NCBI GenBank assembly: GCA_043825735.1
Contig: JBDRRP010000155.1
Span: 57,221 to 77,220, forward strand
Length of the DNA: 20,000 nucleotides
Reading direction: 5' to 3'
DNA from: Pseudomonadota bacterium
GTDB taxonomy: Bacteria > Desulfobacterota > Desulfobacteria > Desulfobacterales > JBDRRP01
Numbering within the stretch: position 1 is the stretch's first letter; each line of letters begins with the position of its first letter. Shown in pieces: positions 8,834 through 20,000 of the stretch. The position numbers were made by a program, and so were the translations under genes. The notes beneath the pieces were generated by a model. That model searched no databases and was not told the DNA's origin. It saw only the letters and a program-made list of their open reading frames with translations.

Positions 8834-10605
8834 ACGCAGCGGACCAGAGCACCTCAGAGATTAGAATCACCGGCATCAGCGCCTCCCCAGGCATCTGCAT
8901 CGGCAAGGCCTATATGGTCGACACCGAGGGGGTCGAGGTGGTCAATACCTACCGCCTGGCTCCCGGAGAGCTGGAAGATGAAAAAAACCGATTCAAATCG
9001 GCTGTCAAAAAAGCCCGTGACCAGTTGGACGACATCATCGACAACACACCCGAAGCCCACCGCCAGCAAAACCAGATTCTTGAAACCCACAAAGTGCTGC
9101 TCCGGGACAAGATGCTCTTCAATCGCACCCTGGATCGCATCTCCGAGGAAGGCATCAACGCCGAGTGGGCGCTCAAGAAAGTTGTGGCTGACATCAAAAA
9201 CACGTTCACCGACATTGAAAACAGCTATGTCCGTGAACGGGCCAACGATATCGTTCAGGTCTCCGAGCACGTCTTCAGAAATCTGAGCGGCGCCGGCGAC
9301 GTGCGCATTGCCGAAATCCGCAAACGGGTAATTCTTGTAGCCCGGGATCTTTCTCCGGCTGAAACCAGCCAAATCGACCTCGAGCGCATCAGGGGCTTCA
9401 TTACCGATCGCGGCGGCAAGTCTTCACACACCAGCATCATCGCCAGAGCCCTTGAGATCCCGGCCGTGCAGGGGCTGCATAACGCCACCCGGTTGATTCG
9501 AAACGACGATCTGATCATTGTGGACGGATCCGCCGGTCTGGTCATCGTCAATCCCAGTGAAAGCACACTGATTGCTTTCGAAGAAAAACGAATCGCCTAC
9601 GAAGAGCGCAAAGCGGCCATCGGGCGCAGCAGCCACCTGGAGGCCCGCACCACCGACGGTGTCCATGTCCACGTCATGGCCAATATCGAATTGCCCGAAG
9701 AAGTTGTCTCGGCGCACAGCTACGGCAGCGACGGCATCGGGCTGTACCGGACGGAGTTCCAGTACATGAGCATCAGTGGTTTTCCATCGGAAGAAGCGCT
9801 TTTCGATAAATACAAAGACGTGGTGGATGTGATGGCCGGCAAGCCCGTGACCATACGCACTTTAGACATCAACGGCGACAAGGCTGTAAGCTACGGCACC
9901 GACACCTTCGAAGAAAACCCGGCTCTGGGCCTGCGCGCTATCCGCTATTGCCTGAAAAAAACCGATGTATTTCGCACGCAGTTGCGGGCCATCCTGCGAG
10001 CAGCCGCTTTTGGCAACGTGCGTATCCTGTTTCCCATGATTTCCAGCAAGGAAGAAATTGAGGCTGCCGTCGAACTGCTGGACACCGTTGCCGCTGAACT
10101 GGCCGCCGAAGGGCTGAAATTCAAACGAGAAATACCCATCGGCGCGATGATCGAAGTGCCTTCAGCGGTCATCATGGCCGACGCACTGGCCGACATCGTC
10201 GATTTTTTCAGTCTCGGCACCAACGATCTCGTACAATACACCCTGGCCATAGACCGCGGCAACCAGGAGGTGGCCCACTTGTTCCAGCCGCTTCACCCGG
10301 CTATCCTCCGGATGGTGAAGCATGTGGCCACGGTCGCCCGGGAAAAAGGCGTAAAAACCTACATCTGCGGGGAAATGGCCGGCGATCCACTCAATGTGCC
10401 GATTCTCATCGGGCTGGGCCTGGAGGAGTTCAGCATGAACCCACAATCGATCCCGGCCGTTAAAAGCATGATACGGGAAGTCGACACTGAAAGCTGCGCA
10501 CGGTTTCTGGATAAGGTATTGCAGCTGACCGCAGTGCGGGAGATCAACACACTGGTGGAGTCCACTTACGGCCCCATCCTTCAGGAGCGCATATACGGCG
10601 CCTGA
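8830..10605 (+). CDS. ptsI: PEP-protein phosphotransferase (PTS enzyme I)
   Basis: GGKSSHTSIIAR phospho-His motif, GIGLYRTEF, ENPALGLRAIR, FFSLGTNDL and ICGEMAGD. Confidence 0.96.
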   Translation: MNAADQSTSEIRITGISASPGICIGKAYMVDTEGVEVVNTYRLAPGELEDEKNRFKSAVKKARDQLDDIIDNTPEAHRQQNQILETHKVLLRDKMLFNRTLDRISEEGINAEWALKKVVADIKNTFTDIENSYVRERANDIVQVSEHVFRNLSGAGDVRIAEIRKRVILVARDLSPAETSQIDLERIRGFITDRGGKSSHTSIIARALEIPAVQGLHNATRLIRNDDLIIVDGSAGLVIVNPSESTLIAFEEKRIAYEERKAAIGRSSHLEARTTDGVHVHVMANIELPEEVVSAHSYGSDGIGLYRTEFQYMSISGFPSEEALFDKYKDVVDVMAGKPVTIRTLDINGDKAVSYGTDTFEENPALGLRAIRYCLKKTDVFRTQLRAILRAAAFGNVRILFPMISSKEEIEAAVELLDTVAAELAAEGLKFKREIPIGAMIEVPSAVIMADALADIVDFFSLGTNDLVQYTLAIDRGNQEVAHLFQPLHPAILRMVKHVATVAREKGVKTYICGEMAGDPLNVPILIGLGLEEFSMNPQSIPAVKSMIREVDTESCARFLDKVLQLTAVREINTLVESTYGPILQERIYGA

Positions 10606-10610
10606 ACCTT

Positions 10611-10780
10611 GATGGTCCCGTAAAAAGTCGGAATCTCTCGCAAAGCCGCCGTTCGACAGGCTCACGGCCCTGAGCGAAGTCGAAGGGCAACGATCGCAAA
10701 GTTAACACACTGATATTAAATAAATTTTTCTTGGCGTGCTTGGCGGCTTTGCGAGAAAATTGCTTTTCTACGAGCTGGTC
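10611..10780. mobile_element. MITE-like element, family B (170 bp), with a 6-bp target-site duplication and nested inverted repeats
   Basis: AACCTT direct repeat at 10605-10610 and 10781-10786. Degenerate termini GATGGTCCCGTAAAAAG / CTTTTCTACGAGCTGGTC. Perfect 15-bp internal inverted repeat at 10636-10650 / 10742-10756. Confidence 0.72.
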
Positions 10781-10825
10781 AACCTTAGTCACTGCGCGCG
10801 CGGAAATGACGGACGTGAGGGAATC

Positions 10826-11567: not shown

Positions 11568-11610
11568 TTGACACCATGGAAAATATGCAATATTGATTCA
11601 CACCATGAAT
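11568..11610 (+). promoter_or_regulatory. Probable sigma70 promoter and operator region of the MarR gene
   Basis: TTGACA at 11568-11573, AT-rich -10 region near 11588-11596, and an ATTCA-N5-TGAAT palindrome at 11596-11610. Confidence 0.5.
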
Positions 11611-12081
11611 TATAAATTAGATCCAGAAGCGCTCATCCCGCAATACCAGCTCGACCAGTTTCAGGAGCTCATCGGCAAGCTGTTTCAGTGCTGCCAGGAA
11701 CGCATACAGTACCAGAGCGAGCGTTTTGGCCTTCCGGACGCTGAGCTTCGGTGTCTCAAGCTCTTTGAAAGCGAGCGATACCTGACCGCCAAGGGAATCG
11801 CCCATCGGATGAATGTCGTCAAAAGCCGCGTGACCAAGATTATCGACGGCATGGTTCGAAAAGGCATGGTGCAAAGAGTCAAAGATCCGGAAGACTCGCG
11901 CATCACTCTGTTGAGCCTCACCTCGAAAGGGCAGGCCAAGCTTGATGCGATCAACGACTTTTTATCCGACGTGCACCAGGAAGTTCTTAACCGCCTGGTT
12001 CCTGAACAGCGCACCATCATGCTGTCAAACCTGGAAGTGCTCAAAACCGCCATGCAGTCCGTCAAGGACATGATGACCTGA
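11605..12081 (+). CDS. MarR-family transcriptional regulator
   Basis: Winged-helix pattern IAHRMNVVKSRVTKIIDGMVRKGMVQR..DPEDSR..L.LT.KG. ATG 11605 is preferred over TTG 11593. Confidence 0.92.
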   Translation: MNYKLDPEALIPQYQLDQFQELIGKLFQCCQERIQYQSERFGLPDAELRCLKLFESERYLTAKGIAHRMNVVKSRVTKIIDGMVRKGMVQRVKDPEDSRITLLSLTSKGQAKLDAINDFLSDVHQEVLNRLVPEQRTIMLSNLEVLKTAMQSVKDMMT

Positions 12082-12235
12082 CCAGCAGTCGCGGTATCGG
12101 CTCAGTTTCCTATACAGAAGGCAATTTTTGTGAGATATTGGTTCATATCATATACTTTTTCATAGTCGATAAGCCTGGATCAGATTGGTTTTCAATTGCT
12201 TATCAAGTCTATAGCATCAACCGTAGGAGGTCCAA

Positions 12236-12781
12236 ATGGAAAACATGGAACAGCAATTGGCGGACGTAAAAGCCCAACTCGATACGCTCCGCACCGGGCA
12301 GCCCGAAAACAAGCTGGCGATGGTGGTCTTCAGCGGTGATCTGGACAGGGCCCTCGCCGCACTGATCATCGCCACCGGCGCCGTTGCCATGGGCATGGAA
12401 GCAGTCCTGTTCTTCACCTTCTGGGGCACTCCGGTGCTCAGGGACAAAAACAAGAGCGTGAGCGGCAAGGACACCATGGGAAAGATGTTCGGAACGATGC
12501 TGCCCAAGGGGGCCGATGCCTTGAAGCTGTCCAAAATGAACATGGGCGGCATGGGCACCATGATGATGAAAACCCTCATGAAGCAAAAAAACGTTGCATC
12601 GCTGGCAGATATGCTGGCGCTGGCCGAGGAGCTCGAGGTGCGCATCATCATCTGCGAGATGAGCATGGATCTGATGGGCTTCAAACGCGAAGAGATGATC
12701 AACTACAAGCACCTGGAGTATGGCGGTGTGGCAAAATTCATAGCCGAAGCCGGGACCAGCAAGATCCAACTTTTCATTTAG
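12236..12781 (+). CDS. DsrE/DsrF-like (DsrE2/YrkE-type) sulfurtransferase
   Basis: VFSGDLDRALAA, LFFTFWG, LSKMNMGGMG, conserved Cys in ICEMSMDLMG, and GGVAKF. AGGAGG RBS upstream. Confidence 0.92.
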   Translation: MENMEQQLADVKAQLDTLRTGQPENKLAMVVFSGDLDRALAALIIATGAVAMGMEAVLFFTFWGTPVLRDKNKSVSGKDTMGKMFGTMLPKGADALKLSKMNMGGMGTMMMKTLMKQKNVASLADMLALAEELEVRIIICEMSMDLMGFKREEMINYKHLEYGGVAKFIAEAGTSKIQLFI

Positions 12782-13092
12782 TGCCCGGCCATAAACGGCA
12801 TCTTTGCCTTAGAAACCCTGCGCTGCGCGCAGGGTTCCAGGCGAAACAACCGGCTCAGGGCGGCGTTTTAAAGCCCCAAACATCGCGGGGCTTACCGGTA
12901 AGGCATCATGCCATTTTTATTCGCTCGCGATGCTCGCTGCGCCGGCCCGCACTTTTCGAAATCATCGGGCTGTTCGTCTGGAACCCGGTGCGAAGCACCG
13001 GGTTTCCAAGACAAATAGCAGGCTATTCCTCCGGTTTCGAAAATGCTCAAGCCTTGCCCTGAACCAAAACCTACCATTTCTGGACGGACACT
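12780..13092. mobile_element. MITE-like element, family A, long copy (313 bp)
   Basis: Termini AGTGCCCGGCCATAAA / TTTCTGGACGGACACT, flanked by ATTT direct repeats (ATTTAG occurs at 12776 and 13093). Contains several internal palindromes and no transposase ORF. Confidence 0.82.
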
Positions 13093-13154
13093 ATTTAGTA
13101 CTTTAAGGGCGACAACCAGCTTGCAAAAAAACCAAATAACTAAGGAGAAACGCA

Positions 13155-13397
13155 ATGAGTGACGACATCACAGTGAAAAAAGTTCTCGATCTCAAAGGCC
13201 TGGCATGCCCCATGCCGGTGGTAAAAATGAGCAAAGGCATCAAGGATGTGGCCGTGGGTGAAATCGTTGAGGCCATTACCACCGATCCCGGCGCGCTGGC
13301 CGATTTTCCCGCATGGGCCAAAACCAGCGGCAACGAGATCGTAAAGACCGATCAAAGCGGCGATGAGATCAAGTTCTACGTCAAACGCAAAGCCTGA
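13155..13397 (+). CDS. tusA: TusA-family sulfur carrier protein
   Basis: LDLKGLACPMPVV (CPxP motif) and TDPGALADFPAWA; 80 aa; AAGGAG RBS. Confidence 0.93.
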   Translation: MSDDITVKKVLDLKGLACPMPVVKMSKGIKDVAVGEIVEAITTDPGALADFPAWAKTSGNEIVKTDQSGDEIKFYVKRKA

Positions 13398-13558
13398 CCA
13401 TCTCAGGCGCCGGCTGCGAGCAGGTGAAATCTGCTTGGCCGCTGTCGGAACAACCGGTACACGGATCTCCCCCCCGTGAACCCGCGCCGCCACAGGCCAG
13501 TCTGCTCGATCTCCAGTGCCTGCGACAGGACCGGTGTCGGCGCACCAAGGAGGCAAAA

Positions 13559-14269
13559 TTGGAACCCGTCATCTATTTCATACTGGTACCGATGGTCTAC
13601 ATTGCCTTCGGCGTGTTCGCCATCGGCACGGTATTTCAGCTGGTCAGCATTTTCAGCAAACCTAAAAACCCATCGACACTGCGGATCTATCCGGACAAAG
13701 GCGCTCCGTGGCTGCTGGCGGCAGCAGACGCCCTTTTCTTCCCCACGATCCGCCGCCACAAACCACTGCTGTGGGTATTTCTCGTCATTTTCCATGTGGG
13801 CCTGCTCCTGTTGCTGATTACCCACCTCGAGCTGATCGCCGAATGGGCGCCGCTTCAGATCATTGCCCATGACATTCCCATGGGCCACGGCTTTGTGGGG
13901 CTATCGATGATCATCTGCCTGCTTTACTTTCTACTGCGCCGGTTCAAATCTCCGGTGCGCGAGCTCTCGGTGCCGGAAGACTACTTGATGCTCATCCTGC
14001 TGCTTCTCACGGTGCTCTTCGGTGCGGAAATGAACTGGGCCCGCACCTGGTACGAGTATGGCGAAATGGGCGTGGGCGACTACCGCGAATATCTGTACGG
14101 ACTGGTCACTTTCAGCCCCGAGCTGCCCGATGTGACACGCTATTCCGGTCACTCCTTCATGCTCGTGGTCCACGTTTTCTTTGCCAACGTGCTGCTGATT
14201 CTCTTTCCGTTCAGCCAGATGATTCACGCGTTTTTGGCACTTCCCATCAATAAACTGCGAAGAGGCTAA
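13559..14269 (+). CDS. NarI/DsrM-like membrane cytochrome b subunit
   Basis: TTG start after AAGGAGG. About five hydrophobic segments, with paired His residues (IFH...ITH and VVH...MIH) and the NarI-like LLRRF...VR..S..EDY motif. Confidence 0.82.
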   Translation: MEPVIYFILVPMVYIAFGVFAIGTVFQLVSIFSKPKNPSTLRIYPDKGAPWLLAAADALFFPTIRRHKPLLWVFLVIFHVGLLLLLITHLELIAEWAPLQIIAHDIPMGHGFVGLSMIICLLYFLLRRFKSPVRELSVPEDYLMLILLLLTVLFGAEMNWARTWYEYGEMGVGDYREYLYGLVTFSPELPDVTRYSGHSFMLVVHVFFANVLLILFPFSQMIHAFLALPINKLRRG

Positions 14270-14271
14270 CC

Positions 14272-15528
14272 ATGGACAAGCAAACCCGTGACGACCTGCT
14301 TGCGCTCTTTGGCAGCAAGCTGAACCAGGCCATGCGGCTTTATCTGGAAACCTGCACGCGCTGCGGCGTGTGCACCGAAGCCTGCCATGTCTATGCATCC
14401 ATGGGCCGCGTCCAGAACATTGCCGCCTACCGCGCGGAAATCATCCGGCGGCTTTACCGAAAATACTTTAAAACCAAAGGCAAGCTGATGCCGGGCCTGG
14501 GCGAGGCCAAGGAACTTAACGAACTGGCCATGACCGAGCTTTTCGAGGCGGCCTACTCCTGCACGGGATGCCGCCGGTGCATGATGTACTGCCCCTTCGG
14601 CATCGACACCCAGATGCTCATGAGCATTGCCAAACTGCTGCTCATCGGCCACGGCAGCGAACCGGAGACCCTCTCCATGCTGGCGGACATGTCCGTCCAG
14701 AAGGGGGAATCTGTCGACATGTTCAAGGAGAGTTTCATCGCGGGCATCAAGAAACTCGAAAACCAGGTGGTGGCCAAATGGCACTCGGAAGCCGGGGAAT
14801 CAGTCATCCCGGTGGATGTTGAGGGAGCCGACCTGCTTTACGTCGCCCTGGCCGGGGCCCACTCCATCATCCCGGCAGCGGCCATCTTCAATGCGGCCGG
14901 CGAAAAATGGACCCTGAGCTTTTTCGAAGCGGTCAATTTCGGCGCATTCGTGGGCGATCCGACCAAGACCAAGCTCATTTTGGAGCGCATCGTGAAAGAA
15001 GCCGTCAGACTCAAGGTCAAGGAGGTCTGCATCTGCGAGTGCGGTACGGCGTTCCGGGTCATGAAGCACCTGTCGGGCAAACATGAATTCAAGGTCACCG
15101 CCATCACCGAGGTTCACGCCCGCTACATCCGGGAGGGGCGCATCACGCTCGACAAGAGCAAGACCAAAGGCCCGGTCACCTACCACGATCCCTGCCAGAT
15201 CGCCCGGAACGGCGGCGTCATCGACGAACCCCGATACATTTTGAAGCATTTGACCGACGACTTCCGGGAAATGAGCCCGGAACCCAACTACAACTGGTGC
15301 TGCGGCGGCGGCGGCGGACTGGTGGCTCTTGGCGAGGACACCCTTGATTTCCGCATGAAATCCGCGCGCGTCAAATTCGACCAGGTGAAAAAGACCGAGG
15401 CGACGATTCTGAGCACGGCCTGTGAAAACTGCCACGAGCAACTCAAAAACCTCAATGACCACTACAAAATGGGCGTGGAAGTAAAGTTTCTTTCCTCCAT
15501 GGTAGCGGACGCGCTGATTCACCCGTAG
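14272..15528 (+). CDS. (Fe-S)-binding CCG-domain oxidoreductase, DsrK/TmcB/HmcF/HdrD-like
   Basis: Two ferredoxin motifs (CTRCGVCTEAC and CTGCRRCMMYCP), ECG, and a CCG domain YHDPC...CCGGGGG...ACENC. Confidence 0.9.
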   Translation: MDKQTRDDLLALFGSKLNQAMRLYLETCTRCGVCTEACHVYASMGRVQNIAAYRAEIIRRLYRKYFKTKGKLMPGLGEAKELNELAMTELFEAAYSCTGCRRCMMYCPFGIDTQMLMSIAKLLLIGHGSEPETLSMLADMSVQKGESVDMFKESFIAGIKKLENQVVAKWHSEAGESVIPVDVEGADLLYVALAGAHSIIPAAAIFNAAGEKWTLSFFEAVNFGAFVGDPTKTKLILERIVKEAVRLKVKEVCICECGTAFRVMKHLSGKHEFKVTAITEVHARYIREGRITLDKSKTKGPVTYHDPCQIARNGGVIDEPRYILKHLTDDFREMSPEPNYNWCCGGGGGLVALGEDTLDFRMKSARVKFDQVKKTEATILSTACENCHEQLKNLNDHYKMGVEVKFLSSMVADALIHP

Positions 15529-15579
15529 CCATTGATGCAATGCACCCGATTCCACTACCAACGAAGGAGGTAAGCAGAC

Positions 15580-16815
15580 ATGAGTAAACGTTACTTCAAG
15601 TTCGTGATGGTCATGACTCTGGCGCTGGCCGTGACCACTCCGGCATGGGCCACCAACGGCACCAACCTCATCGGAATTGGTCCCACATCCCGCGCCATGG
15701 GCGGCGTCGGCGTCGCCGCCCCGCAAGATGCCGTCAGTGCCATCTTTGCCAACCCTGCAGGGATGTGCTTCGGCTCATACTGCCCGGGATCCGAAGCCGA
15801 ATTTGGTGGCACCTTTTTTGCGCCAACCGTCAAGAGTACTGTAAAGACGCCTTTTGGCGCAGCCTCTGAAGACAGCCAGATGAAACCCTTCGTCGTGCCG
15901 GCGGTGGGAATCGCGGCGCCGGTCAACCCAAAGCTTCGTTTCGGTATCGGTGCGTACGGGGTTTCAGGCATGGGGGTCGATTACAAAGGCAAATCACCGG
16001 CGGTGTATGGTAATCTTTACACTAAACTGGAAATAATGAAATTTGCCCCCAATTTAGCCTATCAGGTCAGTGACAATTTTTCAGTTGGGGCCAGCTTGAG
16101 TGTTGACTACCAGAATTTGGATTTAGGCGAGGGCTCGGCTCACGATTATGCATACGGCGCTCAATTGGGTCTGATCTACAAGATCGGGATATTCTCACTG
16201 GGCGCATCCTATACAACCCCTCAAGGCGTCACGCATAAAAACGTATCGTCTTTTGGGTCCGGGACCCCTGCCAACAACGTTGTATATCCGACAAAAAGAT
16301 ATTTTGATTTAGAGTTGCAGAGCCCCCCCATTTATGCTGGCGGTGTGGCCTTCCAGCCCAACGACAAGCTCCTGGTTGAATTCGACATCAAGTACCTGCC
16401 GTGGGCTGATGCCTCAGGCTACAAGGATTTCGATTGGGATAACCAGTGGGTGTATGCGCTCGGTGCCCAATATCGTGTGACCCCGGCGGTCGCCTTACGA
16501 GCGGGTTACAATTATTCCAAAAACCCCGTAAAGGAACACAATGGTTTTAATGCCGGTGGCGCCACCAACCTGCAAGGGACCTCTGTTCCCAATTTTATGT
16601 ACGAGCAGTTCCGGATCATTGGCTTTCCGGCCGTGGTCGAACAACACGCCACCCTGGGACTTGGCTGGAATGTAACCGAGTCCTTCATCATTGATCTGTC
16701 CCTGATGCACGCATTCAAACAAAGCATCAGTGAGTCTGATTCCTCAGGCACATGGTCTTTTGAATCCTCTCTCGAGGAGACATCGACCTCCTTCGGTTGC
16801 ACCTGGCGGTTCTAG
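15580..16815 (+). CDS. OmpP1/FadL/TodX-family outer-membrane transport protein
   Basis: Signal peptide ending AWA|TNG, RAMGGVGVA, AIFANPAG hatch motif, LRAGYNY and a C-terminal Phe. Confidence 0.9.
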   Translation: MSKRYFKFVMVMTLALAVTTPAWATNGTNLIGIGPTSRAMGGVGVAAPQDAVSAIFANPAGMCFGSYCPGSEAEFGGTFFAPTVKSTVKTPFGAASEDSQMKPFVVPAVGIAAPVNPKLRFGIGAYGVSGMGVDYKGKSPAVYGNLYTKLEIMKFAPNLAYQVSDNFSVGASLSVDYQNLDLGEGSAHDYAYGAQLGLIYKIGIFSLGASYTTPQGVTHKNVSSFGSGTPANNVVYPTKRYFDLELQSPPIYAGGVAFQPNDKLLVEFDIKYLPWADASGYKDFDWDNQWVYALGAQYRVTPAVALRAGYNYSKNPVKEHNGFNAGGATNLQGTSVPNFMYEQFRIIGFPAVVEQHATLGLGWNVTESFIIDLSLMHAFKQSISESDSSGTWSFESSLEETSTSFGCTWRF

Positions 16816-16859
16816 TCTCCCGGAAGCGGGTCAAGTGACGAACTGCCCCAAAAAAACAC

Positions 16860-16891
16860 AGGCGGGTCCTATTTCAGGACCCGCCTTTTTT
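16860..16891 (+). terminator. Rho-independent terminator
   Basis: AGGCGGGTCCT-ATTTC-AGGACCCGCCT followed by a T tract. Confidence 0.9.
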
Positions 16892-17440: not shown

Positions 17441-17540
17441 TTTTGCTGTCCGATAGGGACTTGTAACGTCTCTTGACATCCCGTCATTTTTGACGGTATT
17501 TATGGCGGTAGATCCAGTACAGCAAGGAGGATATACCGTC

Positions 17541-18725
17541 ATGCCCCTCACTGATACCGCCATCCGCAATGCCAAGACCCGCGAAAAAGCATACAAAATA
17601 ACCGACAGGGCCGGTCTCTACCTCCTGGTCCAGCGGTCGGGTAAATATTTCCGTTTTGATTATCGCTTCCAGGGAAAACGAAAGACACTTGCCCTCGGCG
17701 TCTATCCGAATGTATCGCTCAAAACCGCCAGGGAAAAGCTTGAGGACGCTCGCCGGCTGCTGAAAAACGATATCGATCCCTCCGAATACCGAAAAACAAA
17801 CAAGACCATACTCAAGGAACAGGTGGACAACAGCTTCGAAGTTCTATCGCGCGAGTGGTTCGCAAAAAACAAACATATCTGGACTCATGGGCACTCCAGG
17901 ACCATCATCCGACGCTTGGAGCTGAACATTTTCCCGTGGCTGGGGTCACGGCCGGTCGCATCTATCACCCCTCCGGAAATGTTGGCGGTCCTGCGCCGGA
18001 TTGAGGATAGAGGCGCCCTTGAGACCGCCCACCGAGTGCTTCAAATCTGCAGCCAGGTGTTTCGATATGCCATCGCCACAGGACGCGCCGAGAGAGATCC
18101 CAGCGCCGACCTTCGAGGCGCCCTACCACCCACCAAGCCCAAACGAATGTCAACCATCACCGACCCCAAGAAAATCGGCGAACTCCTCCGTGCCATAGAC
18201 GGCTACTCCGGTCACTTGATCACCCGGTGTGCCATGAGGCTTGCTCCATTAGTATTTGTGCGGCCAGGTGAATTGAGAAAGGCTGAATGGTCTGAGATCG
18301 ATCTCGAAAATGCCGAATGGAAAATCCCAGCCGAAAAAATGAAAGGACGAACCCCACACATAGTCCCCCTGTCCAGCCAAGCCGTCCAGATTTTGAGAGA
18401 GATAGAGCCGCTTTCTGGAGGGGGGCGATACGTGTTCCCCTCATTGCGGACAAACAGACGCCCTATGAGCAACAACACCGTATTGGCAGCATTAAGAAGA
18501 ATGGGGTACGCCAAGGACGAGATGAGCGGCCACGGGTTCCGAAGCATGGCCAGCACGCTTTTGAATGAGCAGGGATGGAACCGTGATGCCATTGAGCGAC
18601 AACTGGCTCATGCCGAGGGAAACAGTGTTCGGGCAGCGTATAACTACGCTGAATTCCTGCCGGAACGCAGACAGATGATGCAGGCGTGGGCTGATCACCT
18701 TGATGGACTTAAAGCCACAGTTTAA
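17541..18725 (+). CDS. P4-type tyrosine recombinase/integrase
   Basis: MPLTDTAIRNAK arm-binding N-terminus and LALGVYPNVSL. Catalytic residues are intact: VRPGELR, HGFR, LAH, AAY. AAGGAGG RBS before ATG 17541. Confidence 0.96.
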   Translation: MPLTDTAIRNAKTREKAYKITDRAGLYLLVQRSGKYFRFDYRFQGKRKTLALGVYPNVSLKTAREKLEDARRLLKNDIDPSEYRKTNKTILKEQVDNSFEVLSREWFAKNKHIWTHGHSRTIIRRLELNIFPWLGSRPVASITPPEMLAVLRRIEDRGALETAHRVLQICSQVFRYAIATGRAERDPSADLRGALPPTKPKRMSTITDPKKIGELLRAIDGYSGHLITRCAMRLAPLVFVRPGELRKAEWSEIDLENAEWKIPAEKMKGRTPHIVPLSSQAVQILREIEPLSGGGRYVFPSLRTNRRPMSNNTVLAALRRMGYAKDEMSGHGFRSMASTLLNEQGWNRDAIERQLAHAEGNSVRAAYNYAEFLPERRQMMQAWADHLDGLKATV

Positions 18726-18824
18726 ATCGCACCATAGAAGCCACCAACACAAAGTAAGTTATAGGCCCCCGCTCCTTGCTAAACGTGTCTCCAGAAGGAT
18801 GAGGCCATAGGTAGGCATCTGGCT

Positions 18825-20000
18825 GGTTCATCCCCGCGTGTGCGGGGAACGCGCCGGAAAAAGCCGGCGACCGGGACCAAAATAAGGTTCATCCCCGCGT
18901 GTGCGGGGAACGCAACCTACAATGCGAGTAAATAAAATATGTGCCCGGTTCATCCCCGCGTGTGCGGGGAACGCATCGGCGAAGCGCTCGACAAGGCCAT
19001 AGACGCCGGTTCATCCCCGCGTGTGCGGGGAACGCTGGATATGCTGGCCGCCGAGAGTTTTGACGCGGGGTTCATCCCCGCGTGTGCGGGGAACGCTCGG
19101 AGATGCCGAGGCCGAGCAACTGTTAATGCGGTTCATCCCCGCGTGTGCGGGGAACGCGCCAGCGCCCATACAGATAACCGGGTAAACCGCGGTTCATCCC
19201 CGCGTGTGCGGGGAACGCTGACGGATGCTTCGCGCTGATTGCTGACGACACGGTTCATCCCCGCGTGTGCGGGGAACGCATCGCAAGTCGGCCGTCTGGA
19301 AGCTCGATCACCGGTTCATCCCCGCGTGTGCGGGGAACGCGACGGTTGACTGCCGGCGGAAGTGGCGCGGCGGGGTTCATCCCCGCGTGTGCGGGGAACG
19401 CCCCGGCCGCATGACCCAATAGCCATAAGGAGGCGGTTCATCCCCGCGTGTGCGGGGAACGCCCGAGCAGGAACTCGCGCTCTCCGATGTGCAGCGGTTC
19501 ATCCCCGCGTGTGCGGGGAACGCGACTCAAGGCGGATCGAGCGTCTTTATGTATGCGGTTCATCCCCGCGTGTGCGGGGAACGCCGGTTTTCCGCCTGAA
19601 TCCATGCCATTCCGAGCGGTTCATCCCCGCGTGTGCGGGGAACGCGCGGTATGGAATGACGCAACAAACGCGCATATCGGTTCATCCCCGCGTGTGCGGG
19701 GAACGCTTCAGGTCTGAGGCGTATTGCGAAACGACCTGCGGTTCATCCCCGCGTGTGCGGGGGAACGCTGTATCGCTGCCGCTGAACTCAGTGACCTCAA
19801 CGGTTCATCCCCGCGTGTGCGGGGAACGCCACCCTTGCTACGGGTGCCATTACTGCGGACGCGGTTCATCCCCGCGTGTGCGGGGAACGCTTAAAAATGA
19901 GCAGTTGATAAATTTAAAAGTGCGGTTCATCCCCGCGTGTGCGGGGAACGCCCCGCGAAGAAGTCCTGGCGCTGAACGATCACCGGTTCATCCCCGCGTG
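18825..20000 (-). CRISPR. Type I-E-like CRISPR array: 19 complete repeats plus 1 truncated by the window edge, 19 spacers
   Basis: 28-bp core GGTTCATCCCCGCGTGTGCGGGGAACGC at a 61-bp period (18825, 18886, ... 19740, then 19802 ... 19985) with unique 33-nt intervening sequences. The reverse complement resembles the E. coli I-E repeat (..GTTCCCCGC....GCGGGGATAAACCG), which implies minus-strand transcription. Confidence 0.98.

Follow-up and report, generated by a model that had tools for sequence, protein, structure and literature searches.

Which sulfur compound is handled by a DsrMK-like membrane enzyme when the small sulfur carriers encoded beside it are DsrE2 and TusA? This question is raised by six genes in a Desulfobacterales genome (GCA_043825735.1), which lie in a stretch of 20,000 nucleotides (contig JBDRRP010000155.1, positions 57,221 to 77,220) that is called the window here and from whose first letter all positions are counted. 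The genes encode a MarR-type regulator, a DsrE2-like protein, TusA, a NarI/DsrM-like membrane subunit (M), a DsrK-like iron-sulfur subunit (K) and a FadL-type outer-membrane channel. The unit that they form is real and widespread and is apparently an undescribed variant of the DsrMK/HdrDE kind, in which TusA takes the place of DsrC and to which a sulfur-linked FadL is often added.

The conserved unit

Open reading frame (ORF) and profile analysis places the genes as follows, with a hairpin behind them.

11605..12081, plus strand: marR, 158 residues (PF01047, 40.9 bits)
12236..12781, plus strand: dsrE2-like gene, DsrE_2 family, 181 residues (PF13686, 171.5 bits)
13155..13397, plus strand: tusA, 80 residues (PF01206, 75.1 bits)
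13559..14269, plus strand: M, NarI/DsrM-like dihaem membrane subunit, 236 residues, TTG start (PF02665, 58.1 bits)
14272..15528, plus strand: K, catalytic subunit with 2x[4Fe-4S] and a single CCG domain, 418 residues (Fer4_8 and one CCG match)
15580..16815, plus strand: fadL, outer-membrane channel of the FadL/TodX family, 411 residues (PF03349, 106.7 bits)
16860..16891, plus strand: bidirectional intrinsic-terminator-like hairpin, 11-12 pairs, T-tails on both strands, -22.6 kcal/mol

The coordinates, the families and the hairpin of the initial annotation, which had described six co-oriented genes closing at a terminator, are all reproduced. The hairpin is the best of 12 stems found in the scan, against 10.4 expected by chance; as the number of stems is near chance, it counts for how long it is and where it lies. 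The 281-residue ORF that begins at 13424 is overlong for M, and the 236-residue form, whose TTG at 13559 stands behind AGGAGG, is preferred because homologues align from its residue 1.

Relatives of K were sought in one genome per species, and the best 80 of 214 related loci (68-82% identity) were retained. Across these the order marR-dsrE2-tusA-M-K is unvarying. Where the flank is sufficient, M stands upstream of K in 73 of 73 loci, tusA in 70 of 70, dsrE2 in 64 of 65 and marR in 56 of 58, and fadL follows K in 32 of 71, being absent from 39. Because gene order is fixed in the related loci, the co-occurrence exceeds chance: marR-dsrE2-tusA-M-K is a conserved unit, and fadL is optional. The self-contained set of six genes initially proposed is thus upheld in its five-gene core and not in fadL, which is found in the fraction of loci just given and in 40 of 66 genomes. 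M and tusA are swapped in one locus from a separate search (L124), and two of the most divergent K copies are without dsrE2 and tusA (L128, L130). Of 301 genomes sampled from the order, 66 (host included) carry a K of this clade, as do 23 of 400 genomes of the phylum (at least 52% identity, the next best match having 40%). The only cultured species among the named records of relatives is Desulfacinum infernum, whose strain DSM 9756 has the full set of six.

A sister branch, in which K is 44-49% identical, retains dsrE2-tusA-M-K, and the comparison of synteny suggested with the initial annotation finds the order of these genes held across Desulfobacterota and this branch alike. Here tusA stands ahead of M in 16 of 26 loci, the remaining 10 being truncated by contig ends, and a gene resembling a persulfide reductase (coenzyme A (CoA)-disulfide reductase/rhodanese) lies directly downstream in 6 of 26, three of which were profile-scanned. 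The members carry the source names Candidatus Humimicrobiaceae, Actinomycetota, Chloroflexota and Elusimicrobia. The six therefore do not always go together: the regulator of this Actinomycetota/Chloroflexota branch is ArsR, fadL occurs in none of its 26 loci, and M-K is deleted in a genome of the host's own genus. In that natural deletion variant (G001:C40:2171-4616, L229) marR and most of M-K are gone and dsrE2, tusA and fadL are intact.

Two further arrangements were seen. One Desulfobacterales genome (G676, L234, C1:6457000-6469000) has a second dsrE2-tusA-M-K of the sister-branch type (K identity 43-44%) near ORFs resembling reverse transcriptase and transposase, and this copy was likely acquired by horizontal transfer. 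In L070 the marR-dsrE2-tusA-M-K block is duplicated in tandem, which may be an assembly artefact.

K and its membrane partner

K has two canonical [4Fe-4S] motifs and a single CCG (non-cubane) domain, and does not show the two CCG domains of HdrD. Its cluster motifs (C28/31/34/38, C97/100/103/107, C308, C343/344 and C384) are invariant in a 44-row alignment. The score of K against the NCBIfam model of DsrK (NF045796) is 262.9 bits with a cut-off of 400, and its scores against the TmcB and HmcF profiles are far below theirs (223 of 735 and 220 of 750).

A cryo-EM preprint on DsrMKJOP names the residues of DsrK that serve DsrC (bioRxiv 10.64898/2026.08.25.746951), and these were mapped onto K through the host's own DsrK, to which the offsets are exact, in an 8-row alignment. 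The relay cysteine Cys329 (Cys257 in K) and Glu292 (Glu219) are retained. His210 is replaced by Ser147, and the seven-residue loop with Phe258, which opens the DsrC trisulfide according to the same preprint, is missing, leaving a gap at 195/196. His331 is replaced by Thr259 in 93 of 108 sequences, the 15 with His belonging to the sister branch. Asp500 is replaced by Cys387, which places a cysteine as the extra cluster ligand and, by analogy, suggests Hdr-like chemistry at S-S bonds.

In three trees the K of the module forms one clade apart from canonical DsrK, from the DsrC-linked M-K and from TmcB/HmcF (Shimodaira-Hasegawa-like approximate likelihood ratio test 96 and 97); a gappy row was left out of the first tree, and the remaining two were built from selections of 59 and 30 of the 119 rows. 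The sister of this clade depends on the method, lying on the DsrK side with IQ-TREE (90 and 99) and on the TmcB side with FastTree. A protein of Ferroglobus placidus (WP_012965589) and M-K fusions branch next to module K and the sister branch. The DsrC-linked M-K had been put forward as the sister on the rank of BLAST matches, with which the trees disagree. The phylogeny suggested with the initial annotation has thus set K apart from DsrK, TmcB and HmcF. The residues and trees support the assignment of K to a family of its own beside DsrK, distinct from the DsrK that serves DsrC. Together with carriers that have neither dsrA nor DsrC, described below, they support the earlier proposal that this DsrMK-like pair does not use DsrC.

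Two observations concern more distant relatives. A DsrK-like gene (L143:5694-7097, in G394:C12) has an in-frame TGA at the position of the relay Cys329, with a hairpin after it, and is a candidate selenocysteine-containing DsrK. Several other matches of about 32%, mostly in family f78, also have one TGA.

In M the haem-ligating residues His79, His89, His205 and His223 are each present in 108 of 108 sequences, and M aligns to NarI (E 2.5e-4). In 12 rows compared by eye, M has no Arg before the second His and has a Gly-rich third transmembrane helix, as do three rows of the DsrM-1 type. It is without the Arg-His and Pro pattern of two DsrM of the DsrMKJOP type and is similar to three M of the DsrC-linked DsrMK type. 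Its putative quinol site may thus follow the open pattern of DsrM-1 and NarI rather than the Arg-blocked DsrM-2 pattern.

The carriers and the predicted K-TusA complex

The cysteines expected of sulfur carriers are conserved: Cys140 of the DsrE2-like protein in 95 of 95 homologues and Cys18 of the TusA CPxP motif in 101 of 102. The nearest structure to the DsrE2-like protein is the soluble 3PNX (E 5.9e-32), and its score against NF047629, the membrane-anchored type of A. vinosum, is 93.3 bits with a cut-off of 210.

The model of a K-TusA complex has a score of 0.78 and the best of three controls, which leave out paralogous TusA and DsrC, a score of 0.01. Of 157 solved complexes 116 attain the mark used for such scores, as do 2 of 215 mismatched pairs, counts that are only approximate for K-TusA because our own paired alignments of 44 rows were used. 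At least 94% of contacts agree between runs, and TusA is modelled with a predicted local distance difference test (pLDDT) value of at least 87. The interface is formed on the TusA side by residues 17-20, which include Cys18, and 43-58, and on the K side by residues 133-162, 193-199, 217-223, 352, 354 and 385. The latter comprise a helix characteristic of the clade, the place from which the Phe258 loop has been lost, and Glu219; residues 147, 193-199, 217-223 and 385 among them correspond to His210, the Phe258 loop and Glu292 in DsrK. The copy of the PDB that was searched holds no close relative of K and no similar complex (best 9OJN, 18% identity), so it is unlikely that the model recalls a known complex. 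TusA is therefore predicted to be the partner of K, docking on its active-site face. This is in line with the initial annotation, which had named TusA/DsrE rather than DsrC as the carrier for the pair.

The host has a second TusA cluster (G000:C129:96768-103017, L228) with TusA-like, TusA, MvhD-like, two HdrA-like and QmoC-like genes, and about 200 bp upstream of it there is a 17-bit match to the operator of the module. In L056 and L077 the module is itself directly preceded by a comparable HdrA-QmoC-like cluster.

Occurrence with and without Dsr genes

The host genome (G000) has dsrA and a DsrC with two cysteines, and visual inspection of its translated ORFs shows dsrMKJOP, tmc and hmc-like genes, each in a cluster of its own. 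The absence of dsrJOP, tmcA/D and hmc noted initially therefore holds for the window and not for the genome. Judged by these genes, the host is a conventional sulfate reducer with Dsr, to which the module is an addition. Its genome is 100% complete and has MenA, with neither MenB nor MqnC above the cut-off.

Searches for dsrA and DsrC covered 50 records, namely 34 genomes of the K clade and 16 of the 80 loci, the latter hand-picked, partly for titles unlike those of sulfate reducers; two records are duplicates, which leaves 48 carriers. A match to dsrA exceeds the cut-off in 34 of the 50 records. Neither dsrA nor a DsrC-family protein is matched in six of the 48 carriers (G336, G290, G404, G438, G440 and G442). 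Three of these genomes are 94% (G336), 93% (G290) and 91% (G404) complete, and G442 is a single record of 3.18 Mb titled chromosome. In five-genome subsets of them dsrB, aprA, canonical DsrK and TusE/DsrC are all below cut-off, and no AsrC is found in the four that were searched, nor in the host. K is intact in five of the six and truncated by a contig end in G290. These observations support the independence of the module from Dsr genes.

Two other links were considered and dropped. A DsrC gene 1.3 kb downstream of K in G016 is a lone case. TauE precedes M-K in a single divergent locus without tusA; with a TauE of 80% identity elsewhere in the host genome, this link was given little weight.

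The FadL channel

The AlphaFold model of FadL (pLDDT 94) resembles TodX and FadL in Foldseek (template-modelling score 0.72-0.80), and the barrel with its N-terminal hatch and NPA motif is confirmed. A pair of cysteines after the NPA motif, C63/C68, is present in 35 of 38 FadL copies of the module and missing from most of the non-module copies displayed.

In the sample of the order, K occurs in 40 of 45 genomes with this FadL (adjacent in 39) and this FadL in 5 of 235 genomes without K, counts in which related genomes are not independent. K lies at a contig end in one of those five, genes are broken in two, one has fadL-dsrE2, and one is the deletion variant described above. The operator of the module stands 135 bp upstream in one of the broken cases, and directly before fadL where the middle genes have been lost (L225, L231). 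A database protein (P0509) reads from tusA in frame into a FadL of the module type.

The phylum sample holds 15 further FadL loci. One is a full module split across contigs, and in six a gene of the DsrE2 family is adjacent or within about 3 kb; among these six, one locus has an SQR (sulfide:quinone oxidoreductase) of type III and TusE, one a repressor of the CsoR/CstR family, and one the MarR of the module with both operators. The others are a marR-fadL pair, two loci with ArsR, fadL and a flavin adenine dinucleotide (FAD)/CCG oxidoreductase without DsrE2, one fadL after an NfnAB/SudAB-like pair, one before a radical SAM gene, one remnant, and two distant copies (29%) in acyl-CoA dehydratase clusters. 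In one genome the same subfamily occurs as ArsR-fadL-SQR (type III)-tusE-dsrE2, where SQR takes the place of M-K. No acyl-CoA ligase adjoins the close FadL homologues outside the module in the loci inspected. From the co-occurrence with K and the sulfur-gene neighbourhoods it follows that this subfamily tracks sulfur carriers. An association with sulfur-carrier genes rather than fatty-acid genes is supported, and the channel belongs with the sulfur genes, as the initial annotation had it.

In three genomes of one family (L217-L219) ArsR-fadL is followed by a fusion of 1023 residues of an FAD oxidase and a CCG protein, with dsrE2-tusA nearby in one.

Regulation and transcription

The following elements lie at and behind the start of marR.

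11568..11596, plus strand: inferred sigma70-type promoter ahead of marR, with TTGACA at 11568-11573 and a weak -10 at 11591-11596
11596..11610, no strand assigned: operator site 1, a 15-bp palindrome across the -10 and the start codon of marR (16.6 bits)
12128..12156, plus strand: second promoter-like site, TTGTGA-17-TATACT, with operator site 2 (12141-12155) lying across it

The palindrome on the marR start codon is present in 70 of 70 upstream regions, on which the matrix was itself trained and in which the right half overlaps coding sequence. TTGACA-17-TATAGT stands directly ahead of the ATG with no Shine-Dalgarno sequence and recurs in homologues (CTTGACA in 50 of 70), although the consensus scan did not pick it up; marR is thus probably leaderless. 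Operator site 2 has 6.3 bits here; among 67 homologous marR-dsrE2 gaps, 44 hold a site of 8 bits or more, against 0.57 in shuffles. The promoter-like site that it overlaps has 9 of 12 matches and is weak by itself, three such sites having been found against 4.6 expected. The matrix finds no site in the remaining four gaps, including 0 of 30 ahead of fadL. This arrangement would fit a leaderless marR that regulates itself and a single transcript under operator control, running from dsrE2 to the terminator. A wider regulon was not claimed, the 46 genomic matches of at least 11 bits being mostly intragenic.

MarR has Cys29 and Cys30 in 71 of 71 homologues each and Cys50 in 67 of 71. Cysteine-bearing MarR regulators sense sulfane sulfur (PMC11211675), and by analogy we infer that it may be the signal here as well.

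All six genes have matching RNA contigs of relatives (about 80-90% alike) in run X7, and a piece of 533 nt bridges the K-fadL junction; in both cases DNA carry-over is possible. The RNA run of the source study yields only short, diverged pieces.

Proposed mechanism and its alternatives

It is now possible to outline how the module may work. MarR would repress its own leaderless gene and the second promoter before dsrE2 through the shared palindrome, and would release the DNA once its cysteines are modified by sulfane sulfur. Zero-valent sulfur (S0), as S8 or polysulfide, would then diffuse in or, where FadL is encoded, pass through that channel. It would be loaded as a persulfide on Cys140 of DsrE2 and handed to Cys18 of TusA, as in characterised DsrE/TusA pairs; such a transfer has been demonstrated for other pairs (PMC11094781). 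M-K would act as an inducible quinone:TusA-persulfide oxidoreductase, with quinone as the presumed partner and sulfide as the most likely product. The module would thus work like DsrMK-DsrC yet remain a separate family, and it may allow strict anaerobes without an O2-dependent persulfide dioxygenase to get rid of S0 or to exploit it.

The single transcription unit, the operator, the catalytic residues and the docking of TusA are supported by conservation or modelling. That sulfane sulfur is turned over on TusA in some form is quite probable. The fuller reading, an inducible sulfane-sulfur module in which M-K reduces TusA-persulfide and releases sulfide, we hold tentatively, at a little under an even chance. 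It is put first because the relative DsrMK performs reductive chemistry with menadiol (PMC10861901), because the Hdr-like ligation of K suits an S-S bond, because the carriers without Dsr have no sulfite sink, and because the sister branch adds a persulfide-reductase-like gene.

Several observations weigh against reduction, or against a carrier other than DsrC. The S0/HS- couple lies at about -270 mV. Menaquinol, at about -70 mV (PMC10861901), is a poor donor for this couple, and a NarI-type M would drive the electrons against the membrane potential; since thermodynamics thus oppose reduction by plain menaquinol, oxidation stays live. MenB and MqnC are below cut-off in five of five genomes, with MenA above it in two of the five only, and the host genome has no HemN motif like that of methylmenaquinone synthase save in one HemW-type protein. 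A DsrC-family match is found in 42 of the 48 carriers. Two genomes that are 100% complete, G134 and G275, have no dsrA, only broken remnants of DsrC, and a K with a stop or frameshift, as if the module had decayed alongside Dsr. The DsrC-linked basal K also has Cys at the position of Asp500, so the residue at this position does not discriminate between substrates. In an approximately unbiased test a joint clade of K and the DsrC-linked basal copies is not rejected (p 0.066), and the controls of the complex model, as said, did not extend to paralogous TusA and DsrC.

If the electrons flowed the other way, K would oxidise TusA-bound sulfane to sulfite and pass four electrons to quinone, thereby matching persulfide dioxygenase or sHdr without using O2. 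The sulfite would go to DsrAB or AprAB/Sat in sulfate reducers, giving S0 reduction by way of sulfite or S0 disproportionation. Such a reaction is thermodynamically easier, the HSO3-/S0 couple lying at about -40 mV, and the membrane potential would help the outward flow of electrons. It is also in keeping with the presence of dsrA in most carriers, with the DsrE-to-TusA cascades that supply sHdr, a sulfane-to-sulfite oxidiser (PMC11094781), and with the ability of non-cubane clusters to turn over oxygenated sulfur (bioRxiv 10.64898/2026.08.25.746951). Yet the six carriers without dsrA, of which the four searched have no AsrC, would have no respiratory sink for sulfite, the conserved unit contains no sulfite exporter, and Cys instead of Asp as the extra ligand favours S-S chemistry by the argument of the preprint's authors. 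We regard oxidation to sulfite as unlikely. Alternatively, M-K could act like SQR and face the cytoplasm, converting sulfide to TusA-persulfide and reducing quinone, while DsrE2 buffers the sulfur and FadL exports S8 or polysulfide. By its redox potentials this would be downhill in sulfidic conditions; a type III SQR stands at the place of M-K beside this FadL in one genome, and none is found in the host genome. A repressor lifted by sulfane would then turn on the production of its own inducer, and the sister branch couples M-K with a persulfide reductase, so that SQR-like action seems quite improbable. To our knowledge no characterised single-CCG enzyme acts in such a way outside reverse Dsr, and this lack of precedent counts against it too.

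The substrate might also be something other than inorganic S0, such as an organic polysulfide, a lipophilic thiol, selenium or sulfur for cofactor supply, or FadL might be a passenger carrying an ordinary hydrophobic solute. FadL members of known function transport fatty acids or aromatics, FadL is missing from more than half of the loci (39 of 71), and the unit is patchy in both the order and the phylum and frequently decays. In six of the 15 further FadL loci, on the other hand, DsrE2, TusA, type III SQR or a CsoR/CstR-family repressor stands beside the channel, acyl-CoA ligases do not adjoin its close homologues outside the module, and the operator is found right before fadL after the middle genes have been lost. 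A different substrate or a passenger FadL is accordingly given only a low probability. Returning to S0 as the substrate, an envelope-spanning, Dsr-independent pathway made up of a sulfur-specific FadL, DsrE2/TusA and a TusA-using sister enzyme of DsrK coupled to the membrane electron pool is conceivable but doubtful. If it exists, it would serve respiration or, run oxidatively to sulfite, supply the missing first step of S0 disproportionation, and it would be present in about one fifth of the sampled genomes of the order.

Genomic setting

In the host the module lies between smpB on one side and the transfer-messenger RNA (tmRNA) gene on the other. In L030, the closest named relative, and in G001, smpB likewise lies upstream. 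Each gene of the module occurs once in the host genome, barring a second, distant TusA (36%) and paralogues of K, none above 30% identity, which belong to the full dsrMKJOP, the tmc and the hmc-like clusters. A mobile origin of the host copy was rejected, the GC content, overall and at third codon positions, being like that of the neighbours with only fadL lower at third positions (0.62 against 0.65-0.79). Viral contigs gave no FadL match, and plasmids no close K (best 28.9%).

Within the unit, the dsrE2-tusA gap measures 373 bp, against a median of 42 bp in homologues, and is mostly filled by a genome-wide repeat.

12782..13090, no strand assigned: interspersed genomic repeat in the dsrE2-tusA gap, outside the conserved unit

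This repeat has 136 BLASTN matches in the host genome, 12-77 per position. The gaps contain no convincing extra ORF, one of 93 residues at 12781 falling in the repeat. An interspersed repeat family is also found at 10600-10825 of the window, with more than 100 BLASTN matches genome-wide, and sits in intergenic gaps.

A tyrosine integrase gene follows directly after the tmRNA gene (ssrA), and after it an array of clustered regularly interspaced short palindromic repeats (CRISPR; period 61 bp, 19-20 repeats) extends to the contig end (window 17490-20000). Integrase and array are an island inserted at ssrA, to which the integrase is assigned rather than to the module; the array beyond ssrA we take to be type I-E-like.

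Comparison with known systems

A full-text search of the literature, which did not extend to subscription papers, found no description of the unit, and FadL occurred in none of 25 papers listed, in agreement with the initial view that the combination is not a described system. Members have been labelled 'DsrK (=HmeD)' and '[DsrC]-trisulfide reductase subunit K' in two sources, and non-sulfate-reducers can therefore appear Dsr-positive. If K acts as proposed, TusA would for the first time be the substrate of a membrane enzyme of the Hdr/DsrK type. For testing, the unit offers a candidate channel together with a carrier, an enzyme whose interface is predicted, an operator and an inducer.

A near parallel is DsrMK, the core of DsrMKJOP, which is a menaquinol:DsrC-trisulfide oxidoreductase (PMC10861901). 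Both have a NarI-type dihaem subunit and a 2x[4Fe-4S] subunit that has one non-cubane cluster, and carry sulfur on a small protein. However, K is only 29% identical to the host's own DsrK and lies in a separate clade, and the module is found with tusA/dsrE2, a repressor and FadL, whereas DsrMK is found with dsrC/dsrAB/dsrJOP. The basal dsrMK-only clade (PMC10504309, DsrM-1 type) likewise has no JOP, an M whose Gly-His pattern suggests an open quinol site, and Cys as the extra ligand. The copies of this type that were retrieved (L131, L134, L135, L136) are flanked by dsrC-family genes, have 35-38% identity and fall with canonical DsrK in the trees. In the table of that paper the entry for the L057 genome has no DsrK or DsrM label in the 400 of 407 characters visible. 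TmcB/TmcC and HmcF/HmcE share the single CCG domain, the relay Cys, the cluster CxxC and a b-type cytochrome partner, but the module has no multihaem cytochrome c in its operon and its K is in a separate clade.

Other systems are similar in their carriers. In sHdr-LbpA (PMC11094781) TusA and the DsrE-type carriers DsrE2 and DsrE3 supply a non-cubane enzyme related to Hdr; the module has neither sHdrA/B/C nor LbpA, has a membrane cytochrome b and occurs in strict anaerobes. The cst/yrk operons also begin with an autoregulated repressor followed by DsrE and TusA homologues, and such cassettes of Bacillus handle sulfane sulfur (PMC9918477). They differ in having CstR instead of MarR or ArsR and SQR/persulfide dioxygenase instead of the terminal M-K. 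The YTD cluster with type II DsrEFH (PMC13293266, PMC12998232) combines TusA with DsrE-family genes in Desulfobacterota; neither YeeE/YedE nor a DsrEFH trimer is present among the six genes and recurring neighbours inspected, and the module has its own redox enzyme and an outer-membrane channel. That channel has the fold, the N-terminal hatch and the NPA motif of FadL, TodX, TbuX and CymD, but is only 13-20% identical to them, has the Cys pair after NPA and stands in a sulfur-gene neighbourhood.

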